From Oxynema aestuarii AP17 (lineage in GTDB: Bacteria > Cyanobacteriota > Cyanobacteriia > Cyanobacteriales > Laspinemataceae), in the NCBI RefSeq assembly GCF_012295525.1, contig NZ_CP051167.1, positions 5,941,299-6,005,298 on the forward strand: 64,000 nucleotides of DNA, written 5' to 3'. Below, in pieces: positions 44,799 to 64,000 of the stretch (position 1 is its first letter; every line of letters begins with the position of its first letter). Under the pieces are notes generated by a model. That model saw only the letters and a list, made by a program, of their open reading frames with translations. It searched no databases and was not told the origin of the DNA. Position numbers and translations under genes: made by a program.

Positions 44799-44822
44799 TA
44801 TAAAATCTAAAATCTAAAATTC
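44799..44822. repeat. Tandem heptamer repeat (CTAAAAT x3) directly upstream of the start codon at 44829.
   Basis: ctataaaatctaaaatctaaaattcc. Confidence 0.7.
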
Positions 44823-44828
44823 CCAAAA

Positions 44829-45125: not shown

Positions 45126-45184
45126 ATGTTCAAATATCAGCGATTTTAAATAATTTATACAGCATTTTCCTCTGTCATTTAAGA

Positions 45185-45330
45185 CATTTAGAGCCCCCTA
45201 AATCTCCCTTAAAAATCCCCCTAAATCCCCCTTAAAAAGGGGGACTTTCCTCGTTCCCCCCGAAATCCCCCCTTCGCCCCCCTTTCAAAGGGGGGTTGGG
45301 GGGATTGGGGGATCGGCACTGTTGTACCTC
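45185..45330. repeat. C5-6/G5-6 nested-palindrome repeat cluster (MITE-like).
   Basis: There are successive CCCCC(C)-AT-GGGGG(G) hairpins, for example CCCCCTTAAAAAGGGGG and AATCCCCCC-ttcg-CCCCCCTTT-c-AAAGGGGGG-tt-GGGGGGATT. The same architecture recurs inside tnpB at 60468-60513. Confidence 0.7.
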
Positions 45331-45382
45331 ATCAGACGCCCGAGTGCTGTAAATCAATCAGGGAGCAAGATGCTCGCCCTAG

Positions 45383-46082
45383 TTAGTCATTTTCTCCAGA
45401 GGCGATCGCCTCCAAACTTTCACGATCGCCGATCGTGATTTTGCCGCCGCGACGGTAGGTAATCGCGGGTTTCATAGTTTTAATTAAGCGCACGCATTCT
45501 TCATAAGTAATCCCGACGGTGCGCGCCATTCGATAGTAAGATAACTCAATTTTCAATAGTTCTCCCCCCGGAACGCGATCGGTACCGTGGAGGGTGGCAA
45601 AATAAAGAATTAAGCGCGCCAAACGAACGATCGCCCGTTCCGAAACCAAACCGTGTACGGTGTCGTGTAACTGCTGCAAACGGCGGTTAAAAACGACTAA
45701 TAAACGCAATGCCAATTCTGGATTTTGGGCGATCGCGTCGAGCAATCCCTGACGGTCGAGCAGCAGCACTTGAGTATCACATAAAGCGATCGCCGTCGCC
45801 GGAGCGCTGCGATCGCCAAATAACGCCGGAGCGGCAAAAATTTCGCCAGAATGAATATTCCGTAAAATTGTTTCTTTTCCGGTTGGAGCAATTTTTTTAA
45901 CTTGCAATTCTCCCTCGATTAAAGCGTGTAAAGCTTCCGGGAGGCGATCGCCTTCATGAATGACAATTTCGCCACTGTGATAGTCTTGAATGCGCGCGTG
46001 GGGTTGCAACCGTTGCAGTTCGGCGGGTTCCAACCCACTAAAAACCGCAATCTTTGCTAATGTTTCGACAGTCGCCTGCATG
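45383..46082 (-). CDS. Crp/Fnr-family transcriptional regulator (cNMP-binding domain plus HTH).
   Basis: An N-terminal cNMP-binding fold (FSGLEPAELQRL...GEIFAAPALF) is followed by a C-terminal HTH (YRMARTVGITYEECVRLIK). The start is set at MQATVETLAK. Confidence 0.8.
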
Positions 46083-46204
46083 GTCGAGCTTCCCGATTCA
46101 ATCGAGGCATTTTGAAACGATCGCCGCCGGGATCGACCCGATCGCGATCGGATCGAAGCACCGCCAAACAAGGCAAAAGCGCGATCGCATCGCTTTTGCC
46201 TTTT

Positions 46205-47350
46205 CTACGAACTCGATCGCGCAGCAGAAGCTAAGCGCTGACCTTGCAAAACCCCTTGATAATATTGACTTAACTGACGGGTCGCGGCGGCCCAACTCCA
46301 GCGTTGCGCTTCAGTGCGTGCGTTGTGGCGCAAACTGTCGCGTTCCGACCCATTGGCGAGCAAGCGTCGAGTCGCGGCGATCGCCCCATCGTCGTCATCC
46401 GGGTCGAACAAGTAACCATTGACGCCGTCGGTGACGATATCGAGAATCCCACCGCGTGCGGCGGCGACCACCGGACACCCGGCAGCCATGGCTTCCAACA
46501 GCACTAACCCCAGAGTTTCCGTGCGCGACGGGAAGATAAACGCATCCGCCGAAGCAAAAGCGCTGGCGAGTTCTTCCCCGTGGAGGTAGCCGACAAAATG
46601 GGTCGCCGTTCCGGCGAAATAGGCTTCGAGTTGGGCGCGGTTGGGACCGTCGCCGACCAACGCCAGACGGGCGCCGGGAATCGCTTCGAGGACGGGTTTA
46701 ATCCGATCGATCTCTTTTTCCGCCCCCAGGCGTCCGACGAACAGTAGTAAAGGACTGTCCGGGTGACCTTGAGAAAGGCGCGATCGCATGTCGCGGCTGG
46801 CTAATTCCGGGCGGAACAGTTCCGTATCGACTCCCCGTTGCCATAAATCGACCCGCTCGATCCCGTGAGCGCGCAACTCTTCCACCATTGCCATCGACGT
46901 ACACAAATTGAGTGCGGCTTGGTTGTGCGCGCCTTTGAGCAGTTCCCACAACAACGGTTCGAGCATCCCGAATCCGTAGTGATGGAGATATTGGGGTAAA
47001 TGAGTGTGGTAAGAGGCGACTAAGGGGATTTTGAGGTTTTTTGCGTAATAGATACCGCCAAGACCCAAAATTGCCGGGTTGACGACATGAATGAGGTCGG
47101 GGTCGAACTTTTCGAGAACCCGTCGAATCGAGGGAGTCGGCAGGGCGATTTTGAGTTCGGGATACATCGGTAAGGGATAACCCGTTACCCCGTACACCTT
47201 AGCCCCTTGGTACTCGTCGATGCCGTAATCGGGGGAGAACACGAGGACGCGATCGCCAGCACGCTGTAAGTGTTCGACGGTTCGGCACAGTCGCGTCACG
47301 ATCCCATCTACTTTGGGATAAAAGGTTTCGGTGAAAAGGGCTACTCTCAT
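46205..47350 (-). CDS. sqdX: Sulfoquinovosyl diacylglycerol synthase-type GT4 glycosyltransferase (SqdX-like).
   Basis: A GT4 fold (MRVALFTETFYPKVDGIV ... EAMAAGCPVVA) lies immediately downstream of sqdB, the arrangement seen in cyanobacteria. Confidence 0.75.
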   Translation of the reverse strand: MRVALFTETFYPKVDGIVTRLCRTVEHLQRAGDRVLVFSPDYGIDEYQGAKVYGVTGYPLPMYPELKIALPTPSIRRVLEKFDPDLIHVVNPAILGLGGIYYAKNLKIPLVASYHTHLPQYLHHYGFGMLEPLLWELLKGAHNQAALNLCTSMAMVEELRAHGIERVDLWQRGVDTELFRPELASRDMRSRLSQGHPDSPLLLFVGRLGAEKEIDRIKPVLEAIPGARLALVGDGPNRAQLEAYFAGTATHFVGYLHGEELASAFASADAFIFPSRTETLGLVLLEAMAAGCPVVAAARGGILDIVTDGVNGYLFDPDDDDGAIAATRRLLANGSERDSLRHNARTEAQRWSWAAATRQLSQYYQGVLQGQRLASAARSSS

Positions 47351-47535
47351 AAAAAATTTCCAGACAACCGACGGTCCGAGCGGCTGGTTAACACGGCTCA
47401 CGAACGACAGAAACGAGCGATCGTGGCTCTTAAAAAGCTAGAGGGGAGGGGGCGAATCGCGATCTCGAACCCGCCGGAAGATCGCGAAATCGGCGATCGC
47501 CCCGAGAAGACCCCTCAAAGGTCAACGGCGGACGT

Positions 47536-49453
<1,918 letters not shown>

Positions 49454-49562
49454 TTCTATGCTTAAACTTCAATTAACCCATCCATGCTCTCCTCATCGTT
49501 GAGGGGGCAAGGAGGACGAACATTCCCTCTATTTTAGAATGACTGGCGATCGCCGATCCCCT

Positions 49563-50798
49563 TTAGATCCCGATCGCCTCGTCAGTTTTCACCCGCAATA
49601 GCAAAAACTGGGTGAGGCGATCGTCACTAAAATTATCGTCGCTGACCACGATCAAACTGACCGACCCATCGGGCAATCGCGGACCGAAACTCATCCCCTC
49701 CAAATTGTGAATCGGAACCCCCAACTCGGCAAAATCTAAGACTAACTTCTTCTCAATCGGAGCAACTTTCGTTAACTGCCCTTTCAAACTGGCAATTCTC
49801 GACGTATCCGTCGCCGAACCCAGGGTAATTTGAAAGATCTTCGCTTCGTAACCGAGAAAGCCAAAAGAACGCTCTAAACTCAACAAGTGACCGCCGCGAT
49901 CTAATGCCAGCAAATCGGTTAATCCCGTAAATAAACTCCATCGTTCGTCCGTGTCGAGTTCGTAGAGGTGCTCGGCGATCGGAATCGGCGGTCCGTCGCC
50001 GATCAGATAGTGCAGCAGGCGATTTTTCGGCTTCAATCCCGCCTCGGGATCGTCTAAATCTTGTACGAGGGGGGCTTCGGTCGCCGTAAATAACCGAATC
50101 GGATCCACACTCGGATCCCCGAAGCTGCGGGCGTTGAGGGTGAGCGATTCAAACCCTAAATTCTCTTGAACTCCCCGGGTTTGACCGTTTTCGGTCTCGT
50201 CGGGGAGATAGGTTTTCGGAATCGGGACGCCCCGTTGCCATTGTCCGGTTTCTAGGTCGTACTCGGCGACGAAAGGAGCAATCTGTTTGCGATTGACCCC
50301 TTCGCTGGAGATGTAGAGTTGGTGGGGTGGGGCGAAGGCGATTCCTTCGGGATTGATTTCGCCGATGGGATAGGGACGATTGTTTTCGTTGCGGATTTCG
50401 GTAACGTTCTCGATTTCGAGCTTTTGAATGCCGATCGCGTCAGGATTGCTAGAATCCAGGGTAAGTTTGAGGGTGTAGAAACGGGCCGGTCCGTAGTTTC
50501 CGCGATCGTCGGAAATGGCGTAGAAGCGATCGCGCCCGCGATCGTAGGTTATCCCGGATAACCCGCCGATTTGGGTTCCCTGAAAACTGCTCCCGGTTAA
50601 TTTATATTCGTCTAAAAATTCTAGGGAAAGGTCGAGAAACATCCGATCTTGCGCGGAGACTGCAGGTAATGTACAGCCACTCAAGAGATTGGAGATCGCT
50701 AAAACTAATGCGACTAGGGCGATCGCCCCTTTGCGAAAACCAAATTTTACGAACTGCTTCCCTTGCTGCAACACTCGAACCTCTGAATTATTACCCAT
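49563..50798 (-). CDS. Lipoprotein of the 'esterase-like activity of phytase' family.
   Basis: A lipobox LLSGC is followed by the motif ISDDRGNYGPARFYTL typical of that family. Confidence 0.55.
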   Translation of the reverse strand: MGNNSEVRVLQQGKQFVKFGFRKGAIALVALVLAISNLLSGCTLPAVSAQDRMFLDLSLEFLDEYKLTGSSFQGTQIGGLSGITYDRGRDRFYAISDDRGNYGPARFYTLKLTLDSSNPDAIGIQKLEIENVTEIRNENNRPYPIGEINPEGIAFAPPHQLYISSEGVNRKQIAPFVAEYDLETGQWQRGVPIPKTYLPDETENGQTRGVQENLGFESLTLNARSFGDPSVDPIRLFTATEAPLVQDLDDPEAGLKPKNRLLHYLIGDGPPIPIAEHLYELDTDERWSLFTGLTDLLALDRGGHLLSLERSFGFLGYEAKIFQITLGSATDTSRIASLKGQLTKVAPIEKKLVLDFAELGVPIHNLEGMSFGPRLPDGSVSLIVVSDDNFSDDRLTQFLLLRVKTDEAIGI

Positions 50799-51135
50799 TA
50801 GCTATCTTACCGAAAATTTGGGTTTAAAGCCCCGGCCTGCTAGGACGGTTTTTCTTCTTGTAATCTGTCAATCTAATCTTCAATCATCTGAATCATTGTC
50901 TTGCGTTTTTGCTTGGAAATTCTTCTCAGTTTTGTGAGTCTTTCACTGTCAAAATGCTCGATCTTTCCTCGATCGTCCTACCCACTGGCTACCGATCCAC
51001 GTTATCATAAATCCCATGAAGATATTGAAGTTTAAGTTATACAGCCACAAGCACAATAGGCACCTCAAGCGGTCAATTAATGCGGCTGGGGTTTTTTATA
51101 ACCATTGCATTGCTCTCCATAAACCGTACTAGCGT

Positions 51136-51453
51136 ATGGGGGGTAAGCACTTGAACTGTGCAAAACTTCAGTCTCATCTGGTCAAGTTGCGAAAGCGTAA
51201 TCCCTGCTGGAAATGGGTTGGCTCTCAGGCGGTGCAGGAAAGCTGTCAACGTATTGAGAAAGCCGATGGATGGTTCTTCAAGCCTCATAAAAAAGGAGTT
51301 AGATCCCCCGGATTTAAGAAGGTTAAAAAGTACAATTCCTGCACCCTGAAGCAAGCTGGATACAAGTTTCTAGGCGGTAATCGGGTCAAGATTGAGAATC
51401 GAGTCGATCGGTTTTGGAACTCCAGAGAAATAGAAGGGGTGAAACTGTCTTGA
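51136..51453 (+). pseudogene. Internal fragment of an IS200/IS605-family tnpB.
   Basis: The fragment ...SQAVQESCQRIEKADGWFFK...GVRSPGFKKVKKYNSCTLKQAGYKF...NRVKI parallels the SQ-L..AF.NFF...G.P.FK.K....S..Y region of the full TnpB at 60078..61304. It has no N-terminus and no RuvC domains. Confidence 0.5.
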
Positions 51454-51515
51454 AGAGTCACAATTTGTTTCAATTTGCGTTTTTCTGGCATGATTTAGCC
51501 CATTTTGCCAAATTT

Positions 51516-52790
51516 ATGTACAAATTACCCCCGATTTTGACAAAAACCCGTTTTCAACGGTTTACAGGCTGTTTTGGTTTCGCTCAGATTCCCATTAGTC
51601 TGCTGGCGATCGCCCTATGGAGTGGGGCGCCCGCCCCGGTTGGCGCCCGTTCGGAAACGACGGAAGCACCGCCGATTCCGGCGACGGAGTCTTCGGAAAT
51701 GGCGCCGGATCCCCTGTTGCCCAATCCTCCTGAAGACGGTGTATTGCCTCCAGAACGCCGTCAATCTCTGGAATTGGCGTTGGATCGCCTCAATGCGGAA
51801 GCGTTGGCTCAATTGGCGGCGGGAAATGGGAAAGAGGCGTTTAAATTGTGGAATCGGGAATTACGGTTGCGTCGCTATCTCGGCCCGATCGCCGAAGTGC
51901 AGGCGTTGAGTCGGGTGGGGGCGATCGCGTGGCAACAGGAGGAGTTAACTCAAGTCGAAATTGTCGAGACCCGCTTGGAGGCGATTCACCAGGAGTTTTG
52001 TCCGGGGGGTCAGTTATGCGATTTGGCGCTTTTGCGGGAGTTGGGAGGAGCATTCGAGCAGGTGCGATCGCGGGATCTCGCTATTCGCGTCTACAGCAAA
52101 CTGTTGGGTAATGCCCGTCAACGGGAAGATATTGAGGAAATTAAGCTTAATTTAGAAAAAATTGGACAATTACAGGTAGAAAATCTCGACTATCGAGCTG
52201 CCGCTCCCTATTACGAAGAATTGCTTGCTCATGCGACAGCACGAAACGATCGCGAGGCTCAAATCGGTTATATCGAGCGCTTGATTTTCGTGTACGCCCA
52301 AGGACGCGATCGCGAACGGGCGATCGTCATGCGCCAACAACTGATCGCCCACTATTTAAACGTGCAGGATTTACGCAAAGTTCCGCAGTTGAAAGTGGCG
52401 GTGGGCGTCAATTACCAACTGCTGGGCAAACTGCCGGAGGCGATCGAAAATTACCGCGAAGCTTATACGATGGCTTGGTCGCTCCAACAATTCCAAGTGG
52501 CTCGCGAAGCCCTGCAACAATTGGCGGACTTGTATTATTCTTTAGAGAAAGTTGATGAAGCGTTGCAAGTTTACGAGGCGATGTTAGTTGTCGATCGCCG
52601 CGCCACCAATCTTTACGGATTGATGGAGAGTTTCGATCGCATCGGCCAAATTCAGCGCGATCGTGGGGCCTATCCGGAAGCGCTCGCCGCCTTCCAAAGC
52701 GCTTTAGAATTGGCTCAACGCCTCGATGCCCCCACGGATCGATTCAGCCGCCAAATCGAGGAAATCGTCCGCCAATCTGCTCAACAATAA
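51516..52790 (+). CDS. Secreted TPR-like hypothetical protein.
   Basis: A signal-like ISLLAIALWSGAPAPVGA is followed by helical repeat-rich sequence. The start is set at MYKLPP. Confidence 0.5.
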   Translation: MYKLPPILTKTRFQRFTGCFGFAQIPISLLAIALWSGAPAPVGARSETTEAPPIPATESSEMAPDPLLPNPPEDGVLPPERRQSLELALDRLNAEALAQLAAGNGKEAFKLWNRELRLRRYLGPIAEVQALSRVGAIAWQQEELTQVEIVETRLEAIHQEFCPGGQLCDLALLRELGGAFEQVRSRDLAIRVYSKLLGNARQREDIEEIKLNLEKIGQLQVENLDYRAAAPYYEELLAHATARNDREAQIGYIERLIFVYAQGRDRERAIVMRQQLIAHYLNVQDLRKVPQLKVAVGVNYQLLGKLPEAIENYREAYTMAWSLQQFQVAREALQQLADLYYSLEKVDEALQVYEAMLVVDRRATNLYGLMESFDRIGQIQRDRGAYPEALAAFQSALELAQRLDAPTDRFSRQIEEIVRQSAQQ

Positions 52791-52924
52791 GCGGCGACGG
52801 GCTAAAAATTTGAGTTTAATTTTAGAATTGATGGGTTACACTTTTCGGCGATCGGGTTGGGTGGCGCTCAGGGGTTGGCGATCGCTGCCGAAGGATGCGT
52901 ACACCACAGCCTGTTGAGTGGCAA

Positions 52925-52968
52925 TCTAAAATCTAAAACCTAAAACCTAAAATCTAAAATCTAAAATT
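52925..52968. repeat. Tandem heptamer repeat (CTAAAAT/CTAAAAC x6) directly upstream of the decarboxylase start codon.
   Basis: tctaaaatctaaaacctaaaacctaaaatctaaaatctaaaattcc. Confidence 0.75.
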
Positions 52969-52972
52969 CCTC

Positions 52973-54451
52973 GTGTCATCTACCCACAATCCTAAAAAAG
53001 CTCCCATTCTCGAAACCCTGCAAGCGTGTACTCAGCGTTGTCATGCGCCGTTTTATACCCCCGGTCACAAGCACGGGCGGGGAATGCCGCAGGAGTTGAC
53101 GGCGTGGCTGGGGTTGCCCGTATTTCAGGCGGACTTGCCGGAATTGCCGGAACTCGATAATTTGTTTTCGCCCCAAAGTGTGATTCAAGAAGCCCAGGAG
53201 TTGGCGGCAGAAACATTTGGAGCCGATCGCACCTGGTTTTTAGTGAATGGGTCTACCAGTGGTATTGTGGCGGCGATTTTGGCGACTTGCAGCAGTGGGG
53301 ACAAAATCATTTTGCCGCGCACGGTCCACCGTTCGGTGATTTCCGGTTTAATCCTTTCCGGGGCGATGCCGATTTTTATCAATCCGGAATACGATCCCGT
53401 GTGGGATCTGGCGTGGGGGATGGGGCCAGAGGCCGTGGAAGGGGCGTTAAACGAGCATCCGGACGCTAAAGCCGTGATGGTGGTTTATCCAACCTATCAG
53501 GGGGTTTGTAGTGACATCGAGGCGATCGCCCGTGTTTGCCGCGATCGCGACGTTCTCCTGTTGGCCGACGAAGCCCACGGACCTCATTTTACCTTTCATC
53601 GAGACTTGCCGATGGCGGCGTTGGCGGCGGGGGCGGATGTCAGCGTGCAGTCGATCCACAAAGTCCTCGGGGCGTTGACCCAAGCTTCGATGGTACACGT
53701 AAAAGGCGATCGCCTCGATCCGGACCGCCTCAGTGCGAGTTTGCAACTGCTGACATCGAGTAGTCCGAGTTACTTGCTGTTGGCGTCCCTGGATGCGGCG
53801 CGGCGACAGATGGCCCTCGACGGCGAGGCGCTGATGGAGGAGACGTTAAGATTAGGGCGATCGGCCCAAGCGCAAATTGCGGCGATTCCCGGGTTGAGGG
53901 TGTTGGACGGGCCGAGTGCGCCGACCTCGGGATTTACGGCACGCGATCGCACCCGCATCGTCGTCAACGTCAGCGAGTTGGGATTGAGCGGTTACGAAGC
54001 GGACGAGCTTCTCGACGAAAAATTCGGCGTAGTTTGCGAATTGCCGTTACCGAAAACGGTGACTTTTATCGTCAGTTTGGGCAATACTCAAACCGATATC
54101 GATCGCCTCGTAGCGGGATTGGAGGGGTTAGCTCGGCAGTTTCGACGGGAGGGCGCCTGTGGTGGCGATCGCCCCCCCCTCGCCTTTCCCGAATTGTCCC
54201 CGAAACCGTTGTGCCTGTCTCCACGGGATGCCTTTTTTGCTCCGGTGGAAACGATTCGCGCGATCGATGCCGTCAACCGCATCAGTGCGGAGTTGGTCTG
54301 TCCCTATCCGCCTGGAATTCCGATTTTGATGCCCGGAGAGGCGATTTGTGCAGCCGCGATCGATTACTTGCACGCCGTCAAGACCCGAGGAGCCCTGCTC
54401 ACCGGATGTAGCGATCCGAGCTTTCAAACCGTGCAAGTCGTGCAAGAGTAG
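52973..54451 (+). CDS. PLP-dependent Orn/Lys/Arg decarboxylase family protein.
   Basis: The N-terminus FYTPGHKHGRG and the major-domain motif WFLVNGSTSGIVAAI...SIHKVLG (PLP Lys) are present. Confidence 0.85.
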   Translation: MSSTHNPKKAPILETLQACTQRCHAPFYTPGHKHGRGMPQELTAWLGLPVFQADLPELPELDNLFSPQSVIQEAQELAAETFGADRTWFLVNGSTSGIVAAILATCSSGDKIILPRTVHRSVISGLILSGAMPIFINPEYDPVWDLAWGMGPEAVEGALNEHPDAKAVMVVYPTYQGVCSDIEAIARVCRDRDVLLLADEAHGPHFTFHRDLPMAALAAGADVSVQSIHKVLGALTQASMVHVKGDRLDPDRLSASLQLLTSSSPSYLLLASLDAARRQMALDGEALMEETLRLGRSAQAQIAAIPGLRVLDGPSAPTSGFTARDRTRIVVNVSELGLSGYEADELLDEKFGVVCELPLPKTVTFIVSLGNTQTDIDRLVAGLEGLARQFRREGACGGDRPPLAFPELSPKPLCLSPRDAFFAPVETIRAIDAVNRISAELVCPYPPGIPILMPGEAICAAAIDYLHAVKTRGALLTGCSDPSFQTVQVVQE

Positions 54452-54457
54452 GGAAGA

Positions 54458-54516
54458 TGAGTGAAAAGTGAAAAGTGAAAAGTTACTCTTCACTCACTAT
54501 TCACTATTCACTTTTT
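54458..54516. repeat. Heptamer tandem repeat GTGAAAA x3 followed by inverted TTCACT copies (hairpin-forming).
   Basis: gagtgaaaagtgaaaagtgaaaagttactcttcactcactattcactattcactttt. Confidence 0.7.
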
Positions 54517-54553
54517 AGCTCCGTATCGAAATTTTTCAACTGCTGTAACGATT

Positions 54554-55156
54554 ATGCCTTCTACTTTGTGGCCCTACATGACCCCTGGAATTCCCGACCA
54601 TTTGTTCGAGCGACTGCCGGGAATTCCGATGAGCAAGCGCGAAATCCGCGTCTTGTTACTCTCCCACCTGAGATTGATGCCGGATTCGGTGTTGTGGGAT
54701 ATCGGCGCGGGAACGGGGACGATTCCGGTAGAAGCTGGGTTGAGTTGTCCTCAAGGGCGAATTGTGGCCGTAGAACGGGATGAGGAAGTAGCGGCACTGA
54801 TTCGCAAAAACTGCGATCGCTTCGAGGTGACCAATGTGGAAGTGATCGAAGGCAGTGCGCCGGAATGTCTCGCCGAGTTGACGACTCGACCCGATCGCGT
54901 TTGCATCGAAGGGGGGCGATCGATTTCCACGATTCTCAAAGAAGTCTGGCCCTATCTCAATTCCGGCGGTCGCGTCGTCGCTACTGCCGCCAATTTAGAA
55001 AATCTCTACAGCATTTCCGAAAGTTTCGCGCAGTTGCACGTGCGAAATGTCGAAGTCGTGCAATCGTCGATCAATCGCTTGGAAACGCGCGGCACCCATC
55101 AAACTTTTGCCGCCGTGGATCCGATTTTTATCCTGAGTGGAGAAAAGCTCGACTGA
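54554..55156 (+). CDS. cbiT: Precorrin-6Y C5,15-methyltransferase (decarboxylating) subunit CbiT.
   Basis: The sequences MSKREIRVLLLSHLRL...VLWDIGAGTGTIPVEA (a SAM-binding methyltransferase) and the 200-aa length match CbiT. Confidence 0.8.
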   Translation: MPSTLWPYMTPGIPDHLFERLPGIPMSKREIRVLLLSHLRLMPDSVLWDIGAGTGTIPVEAGLSCPQGRIVAVERDEEVAALIRKNCDRFEVTNVEVIEGSAPECLAELTTRPDRVCIEGGRSISTILKEVWPYLNSGGRVVATAANLENLYSISESFAQLHVRNVEVVQSSINRLETRGTHQTFAAVDPIFILSGEKLD

Positions 55157-55554
55157 AGTCGGTGCGAGACTCCGATGGCTTTTGGCTCGACCGTTTCCCT
55201 CCCCGACGGGGAAGGTTCCACGGTCGAGGACGACTCGAAACCCGTGGCGTTAGGAAGGCGATGCCAACGATCGCGGCATCGAACCCCTGAATTGGCTTGA
55301 GGGAGTTCGTGTATCCCCGCCGTCAAACATTGCTCGTCTGGACGACTCGCCCATTTTTGCATTTTTGAGGACGGGGTTTTATAGCTCCCTCAATCTCCCT
55401 GGTTCGGATAAAATTAAGCTTCGGTTAACTCCGATTTTCGCTACGGTTAATAGAGTAAGCCGGATGGGTCAGTCTGGCTCCCCGTGCTTGCTTAGCTGGC
55501 TTGTTCTATTCGATCGCCTAACTCAACGCCAACTCTACTCGAACAACCCTTTTT

Positions 55555-56433
55555 ATGCCTTGGTCCCGGATTCTCAGTACGATTGTCGCTAGCCCCCTCG
55601 CTTTAGGGGCGATTTGGCTGGGGGGTTGGTACTACACCCTCGGTTTTGCCATCCTCGTTTACCTCGCCCATCGCGAATATCTCAATTTAGTTCGCGCCAA
55701 GGGAATTATCCCGGCAGGGAAAACGAGTCTATTTTTAACGATTTGTCTGGTCTGCTGCGCCAATATCAACCCGCAGTTTGCCGATGCACTCTTGCCTCTG
55801 GCTGGAACGTTTATCTGTTTTTATTTATTGTTCAAACCGAAAATGGCGACGATCGCCGATTTGGCGGCCTCCATTCTCGGTTTGTTTTATATCGGCTATT
55901 TACCCAGTTTTTGGGTCCGTCTGCGATCGCTCGGGCGCAGTCTGACCCTCAACGATTCCGTGTTTCCTTTCCCGGAAACCTGGCAGTTGGGCGCCGACGG
56001 GGTGCGCCACCTCTCGGAAGGCTTGACCCTGACCTTAATCGCGTTCGGCTGTATTGTCGCCGCCGATATCGGCGCCTACGTGTTCGGGAGATGTTTCGGT
56101 CGCACGCCGTTGTCCGATATCAGTCCCAAGAAAACCGTAGAAGGGGCGATCTTCGGCATCGCTAGCAGTGTGGCGGTGGCGACTGCCGGAGGCTGGTATA
56201 TCCACTGGCCTGCATGGCCGGAAACGGGGGTCGCCTTGGGGCTGTTAATCGGGATTGCCAGTTTGCTCGGGGATTTAACCGAGTCGTTGATGAAGCGCGA
56301 TGCCGGGGTGAAAGATTCGGGACAGTTGATTCCCGGTCACGGCGGCATTCTCGATCGCGCCGACAGTTACGTGTTTACCGCGCCGATCGTTTATTATTTC
56401 GCGACCTTAGTGCTGCCGTTGTTACGAGGTTGA
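55555..56433 (+). CDS. cdsA: Phosphatidate cytidylyltransferase CdsA.
   Basis: The C-terminal signature SLMKRDAGVKDSGQLIPGHGGILDRADS is on a multi-TM protein. Confidence 0.85.
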   Translation: MPWSRILSTIVASPLALGAIWLGGWYYTLGFAILVYLAHREYLNLVRAKGIIPAGKTSLFLTICLVCCANINPQFADALLPLAGTFICFYLLFKPKMATIADLAASILGLFYIGYLPSFWVRLRSLGRSLTLNDSVFPFPETWQLGADGVRHLSEGLTLTLIAFGCIVAADIGAYVFGRCFGRTPLSDISPKKTVEGAIFGIASSVAVATAGGWYIHWPAWPETGVALGLLIGIASLLGDLTESLMKRDAGVKDSGQLIPGHGGILDRADSYVFTAPIVYYFATLVLPLLRG

Positions 56434-56531
56434 GCGTTTGCCCCTGGCGGGGATTGACCCCGGTGCGATCGCCGGACATCGAGGCGGCCCGAGGGTCGCC
56501 CGATTGACTTGATTCTCGATGGGCGAATCGC

Positions 56532-57218
56532 TTAAGACGGTTGGCTTTGGGAGTCCGGCGCGACGAGCTTTTCGCCGATGCGCGGTTCGGTTCCGGCGAG
56601 CAAGCGCTCGATGTTGGTGCGATGCCGCCAGATCACGTACAGCCCTCCGACGATCGCAAAGACACAGTAGGGCGCGGGTTCTCCGAATAACACCATCAAG
56701 CCGGATACGGCGATCGCTCCGGCGATCGAACTGAGGGAGACAATTCGGGAAATAGCGACAAAGACCGCAAATACGCCCAAGGTTCCCAAGCCGACGGGCC
56801 AAGACATCGCCAGCAAGACGCCGAGGCTGCTGGCGACTGCTTTTCCGCCTTGGAAGCCGAGCCAGACCGATTTACTATGACCGATTAAGGCGGCAAAAGC
56901 GGCGATCGTACTCATCCAGGGCAACCACTGGTCCGCGTCGGCGGTCGGCGGTACGAACGGGGCGATCGCCTCCCAACCGTAGACGGCGCGCACGAGGGCG
57001 ATCGCGGCGGCTCCTTTTAAAATATCCACGAGTAATACGGCGATCGCCGGACCTTTGCCGATCGTTCTGAGCACGTTGGTGGCTCCGGTCGAACCCGATC
57101 CCTCTTGTCGCAAATCGATCCCTTTGAGCAGTTTGCCGACGAGGTACCCGGTCGGAATCGAGCCGAGTAAGTAGCCCGCCAGCCATAATCCAGCATTAAG
57201 TGTCAGCCAAGCAATCAT
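56532..57218 (-). CDS. plsY: Glycerol-3-phosphate acyltransferase PlsY.
   Basis: The N-terminus GYLLGSIPTGYLVGKLLKGIDLR..GSGSTGATNVLRT is the PlsY signature. Confidence 0.9.
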   Translation of the reverse strand: MIAWLTLNAGLWLAGYLLGSIPTGYLVGKLLKGIDLRQEGSGSTGATNVLRTIGKGPAIAVLLVDILKGAAAIALVRAVYGWEAIAPFVPPTADADQWLPWMSTIAAFAALIGHSKSVWLGFQGGKAVASSLGVLLAMSWPVGLGTLGVFAVFVAISRIVSLSSIAGAIAVSGLMVLFGEPAPYCVFAIVGGLYVIWRHRTNIERLLAGTEPRIGEKLVAPDSQSQPS

Positions 57219-57273
57219 GTTTTTTGTGTTTTGTCAACTGTATTCAAGGAGTTGGGGGAGTGGAGAATAAGGA

Positions 57274-58518
57274 TTAAAACTGCCCTCCCGGCATTTCTGG
57301 ATCCGGGGCGAATGCCAGCCATAAAGGAAATTGCAACAGTGCCAAACTGATGCTGTTTTCCGTTTCGTCGATCGCGATGAATGGTAATTGACCTTGTTTG
57401 ACCAGGCGATCGGCTCTTTGTGCTAGCACTTCGGGTTCTTCAAATAAAATCACCCCGCGTTCCGGTCCGAAATCCCCGCGCGAAATGCCCAGACAATCTT
57501 GCAGACCGCGCCGCCATTCCCCCAGGCGTTCGGGACTGTTGGCTAAAATTAACGTCCGAAAACGGTTCCCGTAAAGGGTTTTGAGGACCGACATCGCCGC
57601 CGAAGCGATCAAGATATTTTGCAGGCGAGAACCCATCGTGCGGATCGCACCGCGTCCCCCTTGCACGAAAAACCAATCGGAGAGGCGATCGGCATGAATC
57701 GGCTCGAAGGTTCGCCGCAACTGCCATGCAGGCCCGTAGTAATCGGGCATGGTGCGATATTGGTCGAGCAGTTGGCGAATTTGCTTGACCCGATCTTGAA
57801 ACCGTTGTTTGGCAAATTTCGGGGCGGCGATCCGTTCGGGGGGTTCCGGGGTCGGACTTGGGGGGGCGCTTCGTTGTCCTTGCCAATTGGGCGCTTGGCT
57901 CAATTCCAATTGTTCGGCGGCGGTGGCTAAATCTTGCAAGCTGCCGACTAAATATTCTTTAAATCCTTGGACGCGAATCGCTAAATCTTGGGAAACTCCG
58001 GCGAAGCTGGTTTTCATTTCTTCGCGGATGCGTTCTTGTCGCCGTTCGAGTTGCTCGACGGTAATTTGTAGGTTGTGTTTGCGCTGTTCGAGTTCGCTGA
58101 GGGACTCTTGAATCAGGCGTCCCATCGCCCCTTGAGTTTGGGTGAGTTGGTCTTGCAGTAGTTGGGCGCGGCTGTCTTGCAGTTGGGCGATTTCTTCTTG
58201 AAGGGCGCGGTGTTGGGCTTCAAGCTGGGCAATGCGATCGCCCCACTGCGCGGCGATCGCCTCTTCTGTCGGGGCGCTTTCCGGTTCTGCCGGGGGTTCG
58301 GTGTCGCTGGCGGTGTCGGTGTCGGCTTCTTCCTCGGCGGCGCTTGCGGCGGCGATCGCCTCTGAAGCGTCTGTTTCTGGCGCGGATTCCTGTTCTGGCG
58401 CGGGTTCTGCCTCGGTGGGCGTTTCCGCGATCGCCGGATCCTCGTCGGTCGTTTGCTCTTTCGTAGCTTCCCCTTGGGGGTCTAAGGCTTCTGGATTGTG
58501 GATATCGTCCGAACTCAT
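57274..58518 (-). CDS. Conserved hypothetical protein with an acidic N-terminal region and a coiled-coil.
   Basis: An Ala/Glu/Pro-rich N-terminus is followed by the heptad-rich segment QLEAQHRALQEEIAQLQDSRAQLLQDQL and a globular C-terminal domain. The start is uncertain. Confidence 0.5.
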   Translation of the reverse strand: MSSDDIHNPEALDPQGEATKEQTTDEDPAIAETPTEAEPAPEQESAPETDASEAIAAASAAEEEADTDTASDTEPPAEPESAPTEEAIAAQWGDRIAQLEAQHRALQEEIAQLQDSRAQLLQDQLTQTQGAMGRLIQESLSELEQRKHNLQITVEQLERRQERIREEMKTSFAGVSQDLAIRVQGFKEYLVGSLQDLATAAEQLELSQAPNWQGQRSAPPSPTPEPPERIAAPKFAKQRFQDRVKQIRQLLDQYRTMPDYYGPAWQLRRTFEPIHADRLSDWFFVQGGRGAIRTMGSRLQNILIASAAMSVLKTLYGNRFRTLILANSPERLGEWRRGLQDCLGISRGDFGPERGVILFEEPEVLAQRADRLVKQGQLPFIAIDETENSISLALLQFPLWLAFAPDPEMPGGQF

Positions 58519-58617
58519 AGCAAGTACAGTCTCATTTTCAAGCTTTTTTAGCGTACCAGTCAGCCCGAATTCTCCGCGATCGGGCGATCGGGCGATCGCC
58601 TGTGGTTTCAACGGGAT

Positions 58618-59004
58618 TTAGCGATAAGGACAGCGCTGTTCCAAGCAATTTTGCAAGGTTTTCGGGTCGAACAAGACCGGGACGAAGTGAATGCTATTGA
58701 TTTCCTTGAAATAGAGCAGAATCGGCACGGGCGGCCAAAAAATCCGCCAATTTTCCCACTCCCGATAGGGAAAGCGCCGAATCCGCTTCTCTCCGCGATA
58801 GATATCCAGGTCGGTCGCGGTAAATTCTAAGCGCAAGGTCGCCGCCTGCAGCAGTAGAAAGATCGAAAAAGCCAGGATGACAAAGCCGATCCACAGGTTG
58901 AGTAAGGCGACGGGAATCGAGCCGATTAAAATGGCTAAGGGTAAGACGTAACTGGGTTCGAGTCGAACGGTTTGGGTCGGTTGTAAGCCAGAACTGGTGG
59001 TCAC
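58618..59004 (-). CDS. DUF3119-like small membrane protein.
   Basis: Two TM helices are followed by FPYREWENWRIFWPPVPILLYFKEINSIHFVPVLFD, which resembles the DUF3119 signature. The family name is from memory. Confidence 0.5.
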   Translation of the reverse strand: MTTSSGLQPTQTVRLEPSYVLPLAILIGSIPVALLNLWIGFVILAFSIFLLLQAATLRLEFTATDLDIYRGEKRIRRFPYREWENWRIFWPPVPILLYFKEINSIHFVPVLFDPKTLQNCLEQRCPYR

Positions 59005-59198
59005 GAGATTAAAGCCCTCCCGAATTGGTGATACGATACGAGTGAATCTGAAAGCGCTAATTTTATAGCAGTTCTCAATAGAGTCGTGTTGAGTTGCACT
59101 TGAGTTGAGGATAACGATCTCGGTGGATTTCCGTACCCCGGGAAGGGGCGATCGCCTCTAATCGCCTCTATTTTAGAAGGTCGATCGACGGGTCTCAA

Positions 59199-59990
59199 CT
59201 ACAAGCCGCCTCCCTGACCCATTCCTTGGAACATCAGCCAGGAAAGGAAGAAATTCGCAATAAAAATCGCGAGTAAGGAGGTGACGACGGCGGTGGTGGT
59301 GGATTGTCCGACGCCTTTCGCTCCGCCTGTGGTGGTCAAGCCCCAGCTACAGCCGATCGTGGCAATTAAACCGCCAAAAAATAAGCCTTTAATTCCGGCG
59401 CTGAGGATATCCCAAATATCTAAAAAGTTGCGAATCGATTCGAGAAACATGGTTTGCGACAAGCTGTAGAGATTGGTGGCGATGAACAGCCCGCCGACTA
59501 GACCCGTGACTAGAGAAAACAAGGTCAAGATCGGCAACATGATGCAACAAGCGAGAAAACGCGGAATCACGAGGTAATCGATCGGATCGGTTTTGAGGAT
59601 GTAGAGGGCGTCAATTTGTTCGGTCACTTGCATGGTACCGAGCTCGGCGGCGAAGGCGGAACCGACGCGACCCGCGAGGATGACGGCGGTCAGGACGGGG
59701 GCGAGTTCTCTGGCGAGGGCGATCGCGAGGACCCCACCCACCGCACTCCCGGCGCCGAAGTTAATGAATTCTCGCGACACTTGGATGGTGAAGACCATCC
59801 CGACGAAGGCGGCGGTAATTAGGGCGATCAGCAGGGAGTCCGGACCGACGGCGGCGAGTTGTTCGAGGGTGTTGCGACGGTGGATTTTGCCGGAGAGTAG
59901 GTGATAGATGACTTGACCGCCGAGCATGATCGCGGCGAACGATCGCCGCATCCATTGGGTCAAGCTGGATTGAGATTTCTTTTTATTCAA
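59199..59990 (-). CDS. mlaE: MlaE-family ABC transporter permease (lipid asymmetry/phospholipid transport).
   Basis: A multi-TM permease of about 260 aa with the conserved MlaE core (...DALYILKTDPIDYLVIPRFLACCIMLPILT...). Confidence 0.8.
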   Translation of the reverse strand: MNKKKSQSSLTQWMRRSFAAIMLGGQVIYHLLSGKIHRRNTLEQLAAVGPDSLLIALITAAFVGMVFTIQVSREFINFGAGSAVGGVLAIALARELAPVLTAVILAGRVGSAFAAELGTMQVTEQIDALYILKTDPIDYLVIPRFLACCIMLPILTLFSLVTGLVGGLFIATNLYSLSQTMFLESIRNFLDIWDILSAGIKGLFFGGLIATIGCSWGLTTTGGAKGVGQSTTTAVVTSLLAIFIANFFLSWLMFQGMGQGGGL

Positions 59991-60077
59991 GGCGACGCCG
60001 AACGTACAATGTTGAATTGTAGCGAATTGAATTGACTCATCTGCAATAATTTTTTTGAGTGAACTACCGCTATTGAA

Positions 60078-61304
60078 TCAAAGATTACAATAGCGGCTTC
60101 CCTCTTCACTGGGGACTGCGCTAGATAGAACTGAAGTTCTACCACCTCGTCTTAGATCCCCTCCAAGGGCAGTAGAGCGAGTTCCTAACTCTAATATCCG
60201 TAAGCCTTCATTTTTGAGATTGATGGCCGCATTGATATCCCTGTCATGATGAGTTTGGCAATGTTCGCAAGTCCAGCTTCTCACATCGAGAGGTAAGGTT
60301 TTGACTTGATTGAGGCATACATGGCAGGTTTTAGAAGAAGGAAACAATCGATCGACTTCTAGATCAACTTTTCCTTCTGATTCAGCCTTGTACTTTAACA
60401 TCGTACAAAACATCCCCCAACCGACATCACTAATCGCTTTGGCGAGTTGGTGATGGCGAACCATGCCTATCCCCCCTTTAGTTCCCCCCTTATTAAGGGG
60501 GGTTAGGGGGGATTCGACCACAATCACTTGGTTTTCGTTCACTATCTTACGGGATAGCTTGTGGAGAAAATCTTCACGACAGCGACTTATTTTGGTGTGA
60601 ATCTTAGCAACTTTTACCCGCGATTTATTGCGGTTGTTGCTGCCTTTCCTTTTTCGAGCGTGTTTTTGCTGTTTTCTTTTTAGGTTTCGCGCGTGTTTAT
60701 CAAAATGCTTGGGATTATTATATTTCGACCCCTCACTGGTCATCGCAAAATCGGTCAGCCCTAAATCAATGCCAATTGCTTTTCCTTCAGTTGAGAGGAG
60801 GGGAGGTTCTTTTTTACCCTCTACCAAAACTGAAGCATAATATTTACCATCTGGATTTTTGGAGAGGGTTACAGTTTTGATTTTTCCCTCAAAACTTCGA
60901 TGCTGACGACAACGCACTAACCCAACTTTAGGCAGTTTGATGTAGTTTCCCTCAAACTTAACATTTTGAGGATAACTGATAGATTGCCTTCCCTGCTTGG
61001 ATTTGAATCGGGGTAATTTTGCCCGTTTCTCAAAGAAGTTTCGATACGCGGTCGATAAGTTCAACGCCACGACTTGCAAGCATTGGGAATAGACATCTTC
61101 TTTAAGCCAAGGGTATTCCTTTTTGAGGGCAGGTAATAATCCCTGAAGATAACCCCTCGATAGACCTTTCCCGGTCGATTGATAAGTCTCTTGGCACAAA
61201 TTTAACGCATAGTTCCAATACCAACGACAGCAACCAAAGCTCTTGGCTAAAGTCGCTTGTTGCTTGTGGGTTGGATAGATGCGGTATTTGTACGCCTTGA
61301 ACAT
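60078..61304 (-). CDS. tnpB: TnpB (IS605 OrfB, RuvC-like RNA-guided endonuclease family).
   Basis: It has the N-terminus MFKAYKYRIYPT, RuvC-I AIGIDLGLTDF, the zinc finger CHVCLN...CEHCQ and RuvC-III HDRDINAAINL. Confidence 0.85.
   Translation of the reverse strand: MFKAYKYRIYPTHKQQATLAKSFGCCRWYWNYALNLCQETYQSTGKGLSRGYLQGLLPALKKEYPWLKEDVYSQCLQVVALNLSTAYRNFFEKRAKLPRFKSKQGRQSISYPQNVKFEGNYIKLPKVGLVRCRQHRSFEGKIKTVTLSKNPDGKYYASVLVEGKKEPPLLSTEGKAIGIDLGLTDFAMTSEGSKYNNPKHFDKHARNLKRKQQKHARKRKGSNNRNKSRVKVAKIHTKISRCREDFLHKLSRKIVNENQVIVVESPLTPLNKGGTKGGIGMVRHHQLAKAISDVGWGMFCTMLKYKAESEGKVDLEVDRLFPSSKTCHVCLNQVKTLPLDVRSWTCEHCQTHHDRDINAAINLKNEGLRILELGTRSTALGGDLRRGGRTSVLSSAVPSEEGSRYCNL
60468..60513. repeat. Nested-palindrome C6/G6 repeat inserted in frame within tnpB.
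   Basis: TATCCCCCCTTTAGTTCCCCCCTTATTAAGGGGGGTTAGGGGGGATT encodes ...VVESPLTPLNKGGTKGGIGMV... where TnpB proteins normally have a short ...VED-LNVKGM... segment. It belongs to the same family as the 45270-45313 repeat. Confidence 0.55.
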
Positions 61305-61371
61305 TATCGCCGATATAGCCAGATGATAAGATTATAACTGATTTGCCGAAGAGTCGCTTTCATCCCCCGAT

Positions 61372-62397
61372 TCACCTTCGGTAGAATCGGGGAATTCCCG
61401 CTCCCATTGTTAAACAAGTTGCGATGCGATATAGCTGTTTAGTCCATCGATCTAAAAGATCTGTGCCGATAGTAGTAATGATAACTGAATCAATTGCATT
61501 CAACTCGACAAGTTTTTTTAAAATTTCTAATGCAGTTCGCGTTTTCCCGGTTCCTGTTGCCATTTCTAAAACACCGTGACAGTGGTCTAGAAATATTTCA
61601 ATTGCTTCGCTTTGGTGTCGCCAAGTATTCTGTTTTTTAGATGATTTTAAATTATAATTATCCCGAGCTTCAGATACCGAAAACTGATTGAATGTTACCT
61701 CATATCTTTCCTCAGTCGGTGGGCGATCGGGTGCCATTCTCAGCAGCGATCGCCGCGCGGCTTCCGGAAATTCAATAACTTCTACATTGTCAGTTCTATT
61801 ATTCCAGAGGCGATCGAAGTCTTCAACTTTTCGTAAAACTCTCGATCGCACTTCTGAAGACCAAGAGCAAAAAACATCGATACATTCAAAATTGGCAATT
61901 AAACCGGAAGAGCTTTCATTCGCAGAACCAGTAAAAGCAACACTGTTATTGTTTCGATCTGTAAAAATTCCCAGTTTTTCATGATAAATTCCATAACCAT
62001 TGACAGCTTTGGTAATCGCTAATTTGATTTCGAGAATATCTCGTGCTAACAACCAAGCCAAACAAGCCAGACGATCGCCTACAATCTTTTCAAATTCTCG
62101 ATCGAGTTCTCTCGCGATCGCCCGCGCAATAATTTCTTCGCGTTGTTGCAATCCCATCGCGATCGCGTGAGTATCTTCTGAAGATAACTTCGGAGACGTA
62201 ATTAATTGCATTTTACCGCCCGAACGAATTAAAGCCGTCAACCCTTTGGCGGCAATTGCCATCGAACTGCTTGAAAAAAAACCGACGGCGCGTCGATAAA
62301 GTATTGCTTTTGCCAAGCAAGGGATGTAAAAATCGTCAATCAAATTATCGCGATCGCTCCGATAATCTTCTTTAAGGTCTAACTCAGCTAAATTCAA
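61372..62397 (-). pseudogene. 3'-truncated gene for a PLD-family nuclease fused to a superfamily-2 (ResIII/DEAD-like) helicase.
   Basis: An N-terminal PLD HxK(x)4D motif (GIYHEKLGIFTDRNNNSVAFTGSANES) is followed by helicase motif I (MATGTGKTRTAL). The ORF stops shortly after, with no motif II-VI or helicase C-domain, exactly where the IS605 element begins. The low GC is island-like. Confidence 0.65.
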
Positions 62398-62526
62398 CTC
62401 GGATACTCCTCCTGTTGAGGCGATCGGTCACCGCGCCAATTGAGTGAGATTAGAGCAAGCTCTAGTTGCACGAAAATGACCGATAAAAGCCTTGTAAAAA
62501 TCTACAATTTATTCCTTGAGATCGAG

Positions 62527-63117
62527 CTACAAAAATCGACTTAAATCGAACTCTTTTTGTCCGTGTTCGTCTTCCTTAAAACGTTCTCCAATCAACAACA
62601 ACGCTAACTTGTCGGAATAATCGATCGCCCCGCGCAGTTCCTCACGCAAGACCTCCAAACCTCCATTGGCGTATTCCTCGAAAATCTGACCGCGTTGAGC
62701 TTCCGCATTCGGATCCGTGGGTGAAATAATATTGGGGTTGCCGAGTTCGACGATCGCCAGTAACTTGAAGAGAAAATCATAGCCGCGCGAAATGAAAATT
62801 TCCGTCGGAATGGGGGAGGGTTCGCGCTTCGCCGCTTGTTGTACCGGGATCCGTTGGTGTCGCTTGGCGCCTAACGCCGCCGCAAAAGCTAACACGTCAG
62901 CATAAGTGGAAAAAGGCCCCTCTTTATTGTCGTCGTCGGTGAGGGCTTTGACTAATTCGGCTTTATCTTTCGCCACTTTAACGCGATAGGAACCCATGAG
63001 GATCGAAATCGGGCTGAACCGAAGGGCAGATGCAATAATAATATATTTACCATATTTGCCGTGATTGAGCATAAAATAGAGCGATCGCCTGTTTTGGCGA
63101 TCGCTCCGATATTGCAA
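62527..63117 (-). CDS. Hypothetical protein co-located with the PLD-helicase gene.
   Basis: An ORF of 196 aa with lower GC than the core genes. I recognise no family. Confidence 0.45.
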   Translation of the reverse strand: MQYRSDRQNRRSLYFMLNHGKYGKYIIIASALRFSPISILMGSYRVKVAKDKAELVKALTDDDNKEGPFSTYADVLAFAAALGAKRHQRIPVQQAAKREPSPIPTEIFISRGYDFLFKLLAIVELGNPNIISPTDPNAEAQRGQIFEEYANGGLEVLREELRGAIDYSDKLALLLIGERFKEDEHGQKEFDLSRFL

Positions 63118-63134
63118 CTCTCCTTTAGTTCGAC

Positions 63135-64000
63135 CTAACTCGATATGCGATACACGGCCACATCATCAACGATAAACTCCGTAGCCCACTGACCGTCATT
63201 ACTGCCGAGAGAGAAGAAAACGTAATCTAAATCCTGAAATTCCAGCCCGTAAGCTTTGTATGTCGCTACTGCACTTTGCGACCCCGCCCGATAGGCGAGA
63301 ATATCGCTCGCTTTGAGGTCGTCTACCCCCGGACTGGCATAATAACTAATCGATCCGTCCTCATTAAATGCCATTCCTAGGGTCCACCAACCCCCGCGCG
63401 TGTGGCGGCGATCGCTCGCAAAAGCATCCTCCCCTTTTTCATTCGCCCGAACTACAAACTGATAGGATTGTTCCCCAGCTTTATTGTTAAACCAAATCCA
63501 AATTCCCGGCCAATAATTCTCGCTTTTGCCATTTTTTTCGCCCGTCGCCCCGACGCGAAAACCGATGTGATACCCTTGGCGATTTTCCCATTCACTTAAT
63601 GGCGGTACGTAAATCCGGGTGACGACACTAACTCCCTTACCTTTTGCTAAATTAACACTCTGATTTCCCGGACGCAGTAACAAGTCATCTTGCTGCAATG
63701 TTCCTCGGGTTACATTGGGGGTCCCGCAGTCTTTAGTCGCCAATCTCAACGCATATTGACTGCCCGGTATACCGCCAGAAGGGGTGGGAACTTGTTCGAC
63801 AATATCCGGTTGTCCGCGTACTTGCCCTTCATGCCATTTATTATTCGTGGACTGACCGAAAGGAGCATTTTTGGCGGGGATTTCGTTGACCCAGCCGGAA
63901 CCGGGATTGTGGTAGCGATTGTAAACTTTGGGGGCGTTATAAGTGTAACTCCAGTTACGGTCTTCAAAATTGTCACTAAATGAATCTACACGGGTACCCG
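63135..64000 (-). CDS. Hypothetical protein, 5'-partial at the window edge.
   Basis: In-frame translation upstream of the listed 63749 start stays open to position 64000 (...YNRYHNPGSGWVNEIPAKNAPFGQSTNNKWHEGQVRGQPD...), so the gene continues beyond the window. The product is Gly/Asn/Trp-rich and probably a secreted beta-rich protein. Confidence 0.5.
   Translation of the reverse strand, partial: GTRVDSFSDNFEDRNWSYTYNAPKVYNRYHNPGSGWVNEIPAKNAPFGQSTNNKWHEGQVRGQPDIVEQVPTPSGGIPGSQYALRLATKDCGTPNVTRGTLQQDDLLLRPGNQSVNLAKGKGVSVVTRIYVPPLSEWENRQGYHIGFRVGATGEKNGKSENYWPGIWIWFNNKAGEQSYQFVVRANEKGEDAFASDRRHTRGGWWTLGMAFNEDGSISYYASPGVDDLKASDILAYRAGSQSAVATYKAYGLEFQDLDYVFFSLGSNDGQWATEFIVDDVAVYRISS

Follow-up and report, generated by a model that had tools for sequence, protein, structure and literature searches.

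A tnpB-only IS200/IS605 element at the site of probable element-mediated PbeABCD operon loss in Oxynema aestuarii AP17

ISDra2 of Deinococcus radiodurans and other elements that encode RNA-guided TnpB proteins share a domain order, a D-E-D set of catalytic residues, a zinc finger and hairpins at both ends. ISDra2 integrates 3′ of a pentanucleotide, TTGAT, and has a structured RNA that covers the 3′ end of tnpB and stops at the right end of the element. Here we describe an element with the same features in a 64-kb window (the whole stretch of DNA that was analysed) of the cyanobacterium Oxynema aestuarii AP17, where it lies between the first half of the anti-phage gene pbeA and the housekeeping gene mlaE. 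It differs from ISDra2 in having no linked tnpA, in targeting TTTAA and in carrying a 10-amino-acid (aa) expansion at the equivalents of ISDra2 residues 279–284. The best explanation of the locus as a whole, to which we give a probability of about 85%, is that a tnpB-only element mediated the loss of approximately 4.0 kb of a solitary PbeABCD operon.

In the PbeABCD system that has been studied, pbeB, pbeC and pbeD are each indispensable, PbeB and PbeD are 66 and 152 aa long, and 58% of pbeAC pairs are solitary (Xiong et al. 2019, PMC6459918). The domains of PbeA to PbeD have been assigned in a 2024 reappraisal of this CxC ABC-ATPase-DndE-centred system (PMC10853773). Relatives of AP17 that lack the element match the described system in gene order and in protein sizes (656, 63, 658 and 155 aa). 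The locus departs from it in having no dndCDEA genes within 10 kb (in L085, introduced below) and in possessing an additional gene, dnd_assoc_4, upstream; the window moreover retains only half of pbeA.

The element, its target and the deletion

Positions are coordinates of the window, and the features described are mostly on the minus strand. On that strand the gene order is dnd_assoc_4 (62997–62527), a 341-aa PLD-helicase open reading frame (ORF; 62397–61372), the 408-aa tnpB gene (61304–60078) and mlaE (59990–59199). Scanning a genome collection with the window TnpB as query yielded 80 cyanobacterial relatives, with no 100% copy among the matches; the two closest copies of the element belong to Baaleninema simplex PCC 7105 (L001) and Spirulina sp. 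06S082 (L003). Exact-sequence look-ups of a neighbouring 200-aa methyltransferase-like protein and of MlaE identified collinear comparators without the element, namely a 6.3-Mb JGI contig (L081) and GCA_016632315.1 (L082 and L085, from the same record); look-ups of the same kind with the PbeA fragment, TnpB, the dnd_assoc_4 protein and a 204-aa ORF gave no match.

Comparison with L081 and L082 defines the event at base resolution. Window positions 44551–60058 correspond to L081 1–15505 at 99.74% identity, and positions 61410–62505 to L081 19512–20603 at 99.0%; L082 gives the same pattern at approximately 96% and 98.5%. Between these blocks the 1,351-bp element stands in place of 4,006 bp in L081 and 4,020 bp in L082, which comprise the 3′ half of pbeA together with pbeB, pbeC and pbeD. 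Segment 60059–61409 is exactly what both comparators lack. In both, the empty-site breakpoints (marked by a slash) read cgTTTAA/atccaag, inside pbeA, and gtTTTAA/tcaaaaaaattattgcag, 68 nt upstream of mlaE.

TTTAA is also the target of the element. The window copy is 90.7% identical to the L001 copy and 82.6% identical to the L003 copy at the nucleotide level, and homology is limited to the segment from CAATGGGAGC (61409) through GGTAGTTCAC (60059), beyond which the flanks are unrelated. Because the alignments to both copies start and stop at these two positions, the element can be delimited to 1,351 bp. TTTAA stands 5′ of the left end in 39 insertions of the family, the further flanks of which are otherwise unrelated. 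The element and the junction comprise the following features.

60059–61409, minus strand: complete tnpB-only IS200/IS605 (IS1341-type) element of 1,351 bp, CAATGGGAGC...GGTAGTTCAC, with boundaries taken from three copies in different genomes
61410–61414, minus strand: TTTAA target pentamer (transposon-associated motif, TAM), directly 5′ of the left end and the same in L001 and L003
61365–61392, minus strand: left-end subterminal hairpin, CCCCGATTC / GAATCGGGG, with a DNA fold of −11.6 kcal/mol (z = −2.9), conserved in L001 and L003
60067–60096, minus strand: right-end subterminal hairpin, CCGCTATTG (60096–60088) / CAATAGCGG (60075–60067), the last helix of the RNA described below
61331–61336, minus strand: TATAAT box, candidate −10 of tnpB, within AAATCAGTTATAATCTTATCA and invariant in four copies
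61410–62397, minus strand: pbeA remnant, native codons 1–329 of 656, with the nuclease domain (HKD/PLD) and motif I of the SF2 helicase

TTTAA occurs at only 18 of 4,981 positions on the relevant strand (0.36%), so that a random endpoint would fall there with a probability of approximately 0.4%. That both breakpoints lie directly 3′ of TTTAA therefore indicates that the deletion was mediated by the element and was not random, and ties it either to the chemistry of transposition or to two copies having recombined. The left junction is a normal insertion junction at TTTAA inside pbeA, and the right junction matches exactly what would result if the element had inserted at another TTTAA, located 68 nt upstream of mlaE. 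Two routes could have produced this arrangement. In one, for which the odds fall just short of even, two copies in the same orientation would have occupied both sites and then undergone homologous recombination. In the other, which is plausible at distinctly less than even odds, a TnpA acting in trans would have linked the second TTTAA, on the same strand, to one end of a lone copy, and the DNA in between would have left as a circle; the chemistry of this route would be that of the HUH enzymes of IS608 and ISDra2, by analogy with those elements.

What was lost is identifiable from the relatives. The 341-aa ORF covers positions 2–318 of the 626-position PADLOC PbeA profile (E = 3e-119), and the pbeA remnant is 98–99% identical to the 5′ half of the intact pbeA in L081 and L082. 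As the left end at 61409 lies within this ORF, its last 12 codons and stop are insertion sequence (IS) DNA, and the stop codon (61372–61374) falls inside the left-end hairpin. Full-length PbeA of L082 (656 aa) scores 956 bits over the entire profile, and the intact 656-aa form is also present in L085; a complete HKD nuclease plus SF2 helicase is thus encoded in L082 and L085 and not in the window. The lost genes encode PbeB (63 aa; Pfam Sp-CxC, E = 5e-11), PbeC (a 658-aa ABC ATPase matching PbeC and DndD-type profiles, E = 6e-23) and, after pbeC, a 155-aa protein that we call PbeD-like from its size and position only, because it matched no PADLOC, NCBIfam or Pfam profile. All three genes are present in L081, L082 and L085 and are missing from the window, where mlaE follows the element. 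Neither dndCDEA modification genes nor a linked methyltransferase gene lie within 10 kb in L085, and the pbe module is therefore solitary. Since pbeB, pbeC and pbeD are each indispensable in the studied system, the operon is dead in the window.

By its sequence features the element belongs to the tnpB-only branch of IS200/IS605 and inserts 3′ of TTTAA without target duplication. It has the TnpB domains, subterminal palindromes in place of terminal inverted repeats, pentanucleotide-specific insertion and a right-end RNA, and the lack in the window of a Y1 HUH TnpA in cis agrees with the tnpB-only subgroup. The flanks are not duplicated, the empty comparators differing from the window by a deletion and not by a simple insertion. 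The right-end hairpin has a DNA folding energy of −14.4 kcal/mol (z = −7.7, a stability reached by none of 200 shuffles), and its loop contains the tnpB stop codon TGA (60080–60078); the stem sequence varies between subfamilies while pairing is maintained. The left end and the ATG of tnpB are just 105 nt apart, which leaves no room for tnpA. A sequence search of the window, and of the 10 kb around each of the 80 relatives, detected no IS200-type tnpA. With no tnpA in the window, the element is probably non-autonomous and stuck. The window contains no second tnpB, and a 406-aa ORF at 5333–6553 that was considered as one was ruled out by tblastn. The TATAAT box may be the −10 element of tnpB, judging from its position and invariance, although a strict consensus promoter scan did not call it.

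The 80 relatives, which include elements of B. simplex PCC 7105, Spirulina sp. 06S082, Microcoleus, Planktothrix and Crocosphaera, are IS1341-type members of the same family with TnpB proteins 67–89% identical to that of the window. Like the window element, they end on the right in GGTAGTTCAC, have TTTAA as their target and show the same RNA fold. Unlike them, the window element carries a palindromic insertion after the RuvC-II Glu, and it is the only copy here shown at a deletion junction.

Several points weigh against element-mediated loss as we describe it. Scanning metagenomes for the exact left end returned no match, and scanning them for the right-end hairpin returned seven more distant family members, none of them an intermediate with the element at a single site. 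The evidence from AP17 comes from the window, and the rest of the genome could contain further copies of the element, a tnpA or the 3′ half of pbeA at a new place. In addition, three of the four window-specific substitutions in the pbeA remnant fall within 39 nt of the left junction, a clustering that neither deletion route predicts.

These three substitutions (61416, 61427 and 61448) are all nonsynonymous (Q317R, P324R and R328C), with both comparators agreeing against the window. One further window-specific substitution lies approximately 50 nt beyond the right junction.

A first-pass annotation of this DNA, made from the letters alone, had proposed that a tnpB element without tnpA had inserted into, or been associated with a deletion in, a defence-type nuclease-helicase gene, and the analysis bears this out on every count: no tnpA lies in the window or would fit in the short leader of tnpB, and in the comparators several kilobases of operon stand where the element now sits. 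It had also placed the left end exactly where the PLD-helicase ORF breaks off. The ORF is indeed truncated after helicase motif I, but the left end lies inside it. The identity of PbeABCD, the size of the loss and the palindromic insertion by the RuvC-II Glu were not part of that annotation.

TnpB, its predicted RNA and a palindromic insertion

The coding and RNA features of the element, with the predicted guide that adjoins it, are as follows.

60078–61304, minus strand: tnpB coding sequence, 408 aa plus stop, with D180/E264/D356 and the zinc finger C327-C330, C346-C349 (CHVC...CEHC)
60468–60512, minus strand: 45-nt C6/G6 palindromic repeat TCCCCCCTAACCCCCCTTAATAAGGGGGGAACTAAAGGGGGGATA, in frame, replacing 15 nt (AATCTCAATGTTAAA) directly after E264, with a net gain of 10 aa
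60059–60199, minus strand: omega-RNA-like scaffold of approximately 141 nt, overlapping the 3′ end of tnpB and stopping at the right end
60043–60058, minus strand: predicted guide segment TCAAAAAAATTATTGC, the 16 nt of host DNA that follow the right end on its 3′ side

The window TnpB matches the Pfam families HTH_OrfB_IS605, OrfB_IS605 and Cas12f1-like_TNB and the NCBIfam model IS200_TnpB (398 bits), with a domain plan of an HTH/WED-REC N-terminal part, a split RuvC domain (D, E, D) and a zinc-finger TNB domain. It can be aligned over its full length with ISDra2 TnpB (PDB 8EXA/8H1J; E = 2e-63), which places D180, E264 and D356 on D191, E278 and D361, with both CxxC pairs present. The ratio of nonsynonymous to synonymous substitution rates (dN/dS) of tnpB is 0.19 against L001, 0.10 against L003 and approximately 0.10 for other pairs; these low values indicate purifying selection on tnpB during most of its history.

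The 45-nt palindrome converts the motif VE-NLNVKG-M to VE-SPLTPLNKGGTKGGIG-M. It is absent from L001–L003 and from all 80 relatives, in which the length of this segment is invariant, and as DNA it forms a hairpin of −16.8 kcal/mol (z = −3.7). The site maps to ISDra2 residues 279–284, where the lid gating the RuvC site has its boundary at P282. The expansion may impair the nuclease or deregulate cleavage, and on the balance of probability we favour impairment; an improbable alternative is that the palindrome-expanded lid belongs to a functional TnpB with different gating and is not a lesion at all.

Small dispersed palindromic repeats have reportedly been described in cyanobacteria. The 45-nt unit resembles them in being a very short palindrome with intergenic copies: a near-identical palindrome lies in intergenic DNA of an unrelated Oscillatoriales metagenome-assembled genome (L029, 4806–4839), and related CCCCC(T/A)n...GGGGG units are clustered between genes at 45190–45320 of the window. 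This recurrence indicates that the unit is a small dispersed repeat that landed in frame. It differs from the dispersed repeats in that 45 nt replace 15 nt and the event is not a clean insertion.

The 3′ end of the element has the properties expected of an omega-RNA. From 36 non-redundant family members we took the 160 nt that finish at the right end, aligned them and folded the alignment with RNAalifold, obtaining a consensus of five helices and 26 pairs. Paired cells amount to 98%, compared with 33–49% when the partners are slid by one to three columns, and compensatory double changes occur at 13 pairs, compared with 2–7 in the slid controls. The covariation score is 0.373 (0.04–0.08 in slid controls), a value that none of 500 shuffles reaches. 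The window copy fits the fold except for one U-C mismatch, which it has in common with L001. An Rfam search of 58500–64000 at E ≤ 1 found no omega-RNA family, its only hit being a chance match to manA.

Copies in the family all end in GGTAGTTCAC (one or two of them in T) and their sequences diverge fully beyond it, which places the expected boundary between scaffold and guide directly after this motif. The element is thus predicted to encode TnpB and an overlapping omega-RNA with a guide drawn from the host flank. Extrapolating from the biology of ISDra2-type TnpB, TCAAAAAAATTATTGC would act as that guide; it has no other match in the window than its own flank, and in L081 and L082 a TTTAA lies immediately before it.

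A 24-nt in-frame insert, TACT(G/T)CGACT..GCTCAGTAC(A/G)AG, occurs at one identical position, in the 3′ end of tnpB and the 5′ part of the omega-RNA, in L003 (approximately 11090–11113), L017, L026, L035, L061, L065, L066 and L069, carriers that are phylogenetically scattered. L074 and L080 have a distinct 25-nt insert, placed approximately 13 nt upstream of this position. Possible explanations of the 24-nt insert are a small mobile unit that recurs and an RNA hairpin that is optional.

Much of what had been anticipated from the letters alone for this half of the element survives comparison. A full-length TnpB with all three RuvC motifs and the zinc finger had been described; the residues are all there, but the protein is altered by the palindrome next to its second catalytic residue. 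The hairpin noticed over the tnpB stop is real and proves to be the right-end hairpin, and the omega-RNA scaffold expected there gains substance from the finding that this hairpin is the last helix of the covarying structure. A search for a genomic match to the sequence adjoining the right end, which had been put forward as a check, was made in the window and found nothing beyond the flank itself; the TTTAA-preceded match came from the comparators instead.

Alternative readings of the locus

The least eventful alternative is that there was no disruption at all, and that a naturally short PLD-helicase variant and an independent tnpB gene are simply neighbours. Many database homologues of the ORF are indeed only 300–360 aa long, even on long contigs, but they end at scattered positions (in a protein search with the PbeA fragment the nearest match was 59% identical, and many matches were short), and strains 96–99.7% identical to AP17 read uninterrupted through this point in a 656-aa gene. 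Nor is the C-terminal half of the helicase encoded nearby, since mlaE begins 68 nt past the right end. The last 12 codons of the ORF are element sequence common to copies in other genera; together with the continuous pbeA of the relatives this refutes the separate-ORF reading, to which we give essentially no weight. Two further readings accept that pbeA was interrupted. A single insertion into pbeA might have been followed by an unrelated random deletion, in which illegitimate recombination removed the DNA between the right end and some position upstream of mlaE; deletions next to insertion sequences are common and can be of any extent, and just one copy of the element is visible in the window. 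Such a deletion would, however, have had to stop exactly 3′ of a TTTAA, the chance of which is approximately 0.4%, and to leave the right end intact to its last base, so that its likelihood is slight. It is also very unlikely that the junction is an assembly artefact, in which two real copies, one in pbeA and one upstream of mlaE, flank 4 kb of intact DNA and have been collapsed as a repeat. The junctions are exactly as they would be for two genuine insertions; against this, the window is a contiguous 64-kb stretch, assemblers usually break at repeats of 1.35 kb and do not skip unique sequence, and the substitutions accumulated in the pbeA remnant suit a real pseudogene.

Other readings concern what TnpB does at the locus. 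It could be a domesticated, nuclease-impaired regulator of the TldR type acting on the adjacent mlaE promoter region, as tnpB is co-oriented with mlaE and 68 nt away from it, its guide is complementary to mlaE leader DNA, and the insertion at the lid boundary could lower cleavage. Yet the three catalytic residues and the zinc finger are kept and both transposon ends are intact, in place of the loss of RuvC residues or C-terminal truncation and the loss of ends that characterize TldR proteins; the arrangement is absent from the closest strains and hence recent; and the resident copy should not bind its own flank, because what stands before that flank is the right end (TTCAC) in place of a TTTAA TAM. 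We regard domestication as extremely unlikely. A further proposal, improbable though less so than those above, is that the TnpB–omega-RNA of the window copy acted as a drive for the deletion allele. The guide TCAAAAAAATTATTGC matches, beside a TTTAA TAM, the wild-type site upstream of mlaE, a site that is kept in L081 and L082 and that the deletion has destroyed. Wild-type chromosomes cut at that site in a polyploid, naturally transformable cyanobacterium could be repaired from the element-bearing copy, and the cluster of substitutions by the left junction would be a possible scar of such repair. If this is true, the element and the 4-kb deletion would have been copied to every chromosome. Element-mediated deletion, by either of the routes set out above, remains the reading that we prefer.

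Flanking genes and implications

Two genes flank the event.

62527–62997, minus strand: dnd_assoc_4 (156 aa; NCBIfam TIGR04062, E = 8e-52), retained upstream of pbeA
59199–59990, minus strand: mlaE, an intact housekeeping gene (Pfam MlaE, 212 of 212 profile positions), with its start now 68 nt from the right end

The dnd_assoc_4 gene also precedes pbeA in L085, and an identical MlaE protein is encoded in GCA_016632315.1. G+C content falls from approximately 60% in mlaE to 40–45% over 60000–62600, and the HIP1 motif (GCGATCGC) is present throughout the window, which marks the host as a cyanobacterium. Of the 384 nt that natively separate pbeD from mlaE (L081 15438–15821), 68 nt are left (59991–60058). 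Transcription of mlaE, which is co-oriented with tnpB, may now rely on read-through from the element; consensus promoter scans made no informative call, and a consensus terminator scan likewise gave nothing informative.

The PbeD-like protein (L085 9135–9602) and the dnd_assoc_4 protein (L085 4325–4795; window 62527–62997) share a weak C-terminal motif, YA(H/N)GG..L.EEL (BLASTP E = 2e-4), and may be distant paralogues flanking the operon.

L081 retains pbeABCD, and its pbeA reading frame is full length apart from a 4-nt deletion of its own near codon 33 (approximately 20396–20400, equivalent to window 62298–62301), which shifts the frame before invariant N-terminal residues. This frameshift and the deletion in the window indicate independent decay of the solitary pbe module in two closely related strains. 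Among cyanobacterial PbeA homologues on long contigs or in complete genomes (P0004, P0011, P0030, P0034 and others), many are only 200–360 aa long with varied end points, which suggests that PbeA is often pseudogenised across cyanobacteria.

The locus is an ordinary case of IS-mediated gene loss, unusually cleanly documented, and it leaves current understanding unchanged. It provides a base-resolved natural example in which a tnpB-only IS200/IS605 element probably removed most of an anti-phage operon. The 45-nt unit indicates that short palindromic repeats are able to land in frame within tnpB, at the RuvC lid's boundary. For the widespread cyanobacterial TnpB clade to which the element belongs, a TTTAA TAM and a covariation-backed omega-RNA fold would be useful in mining for compact RNA-guided nucleases.

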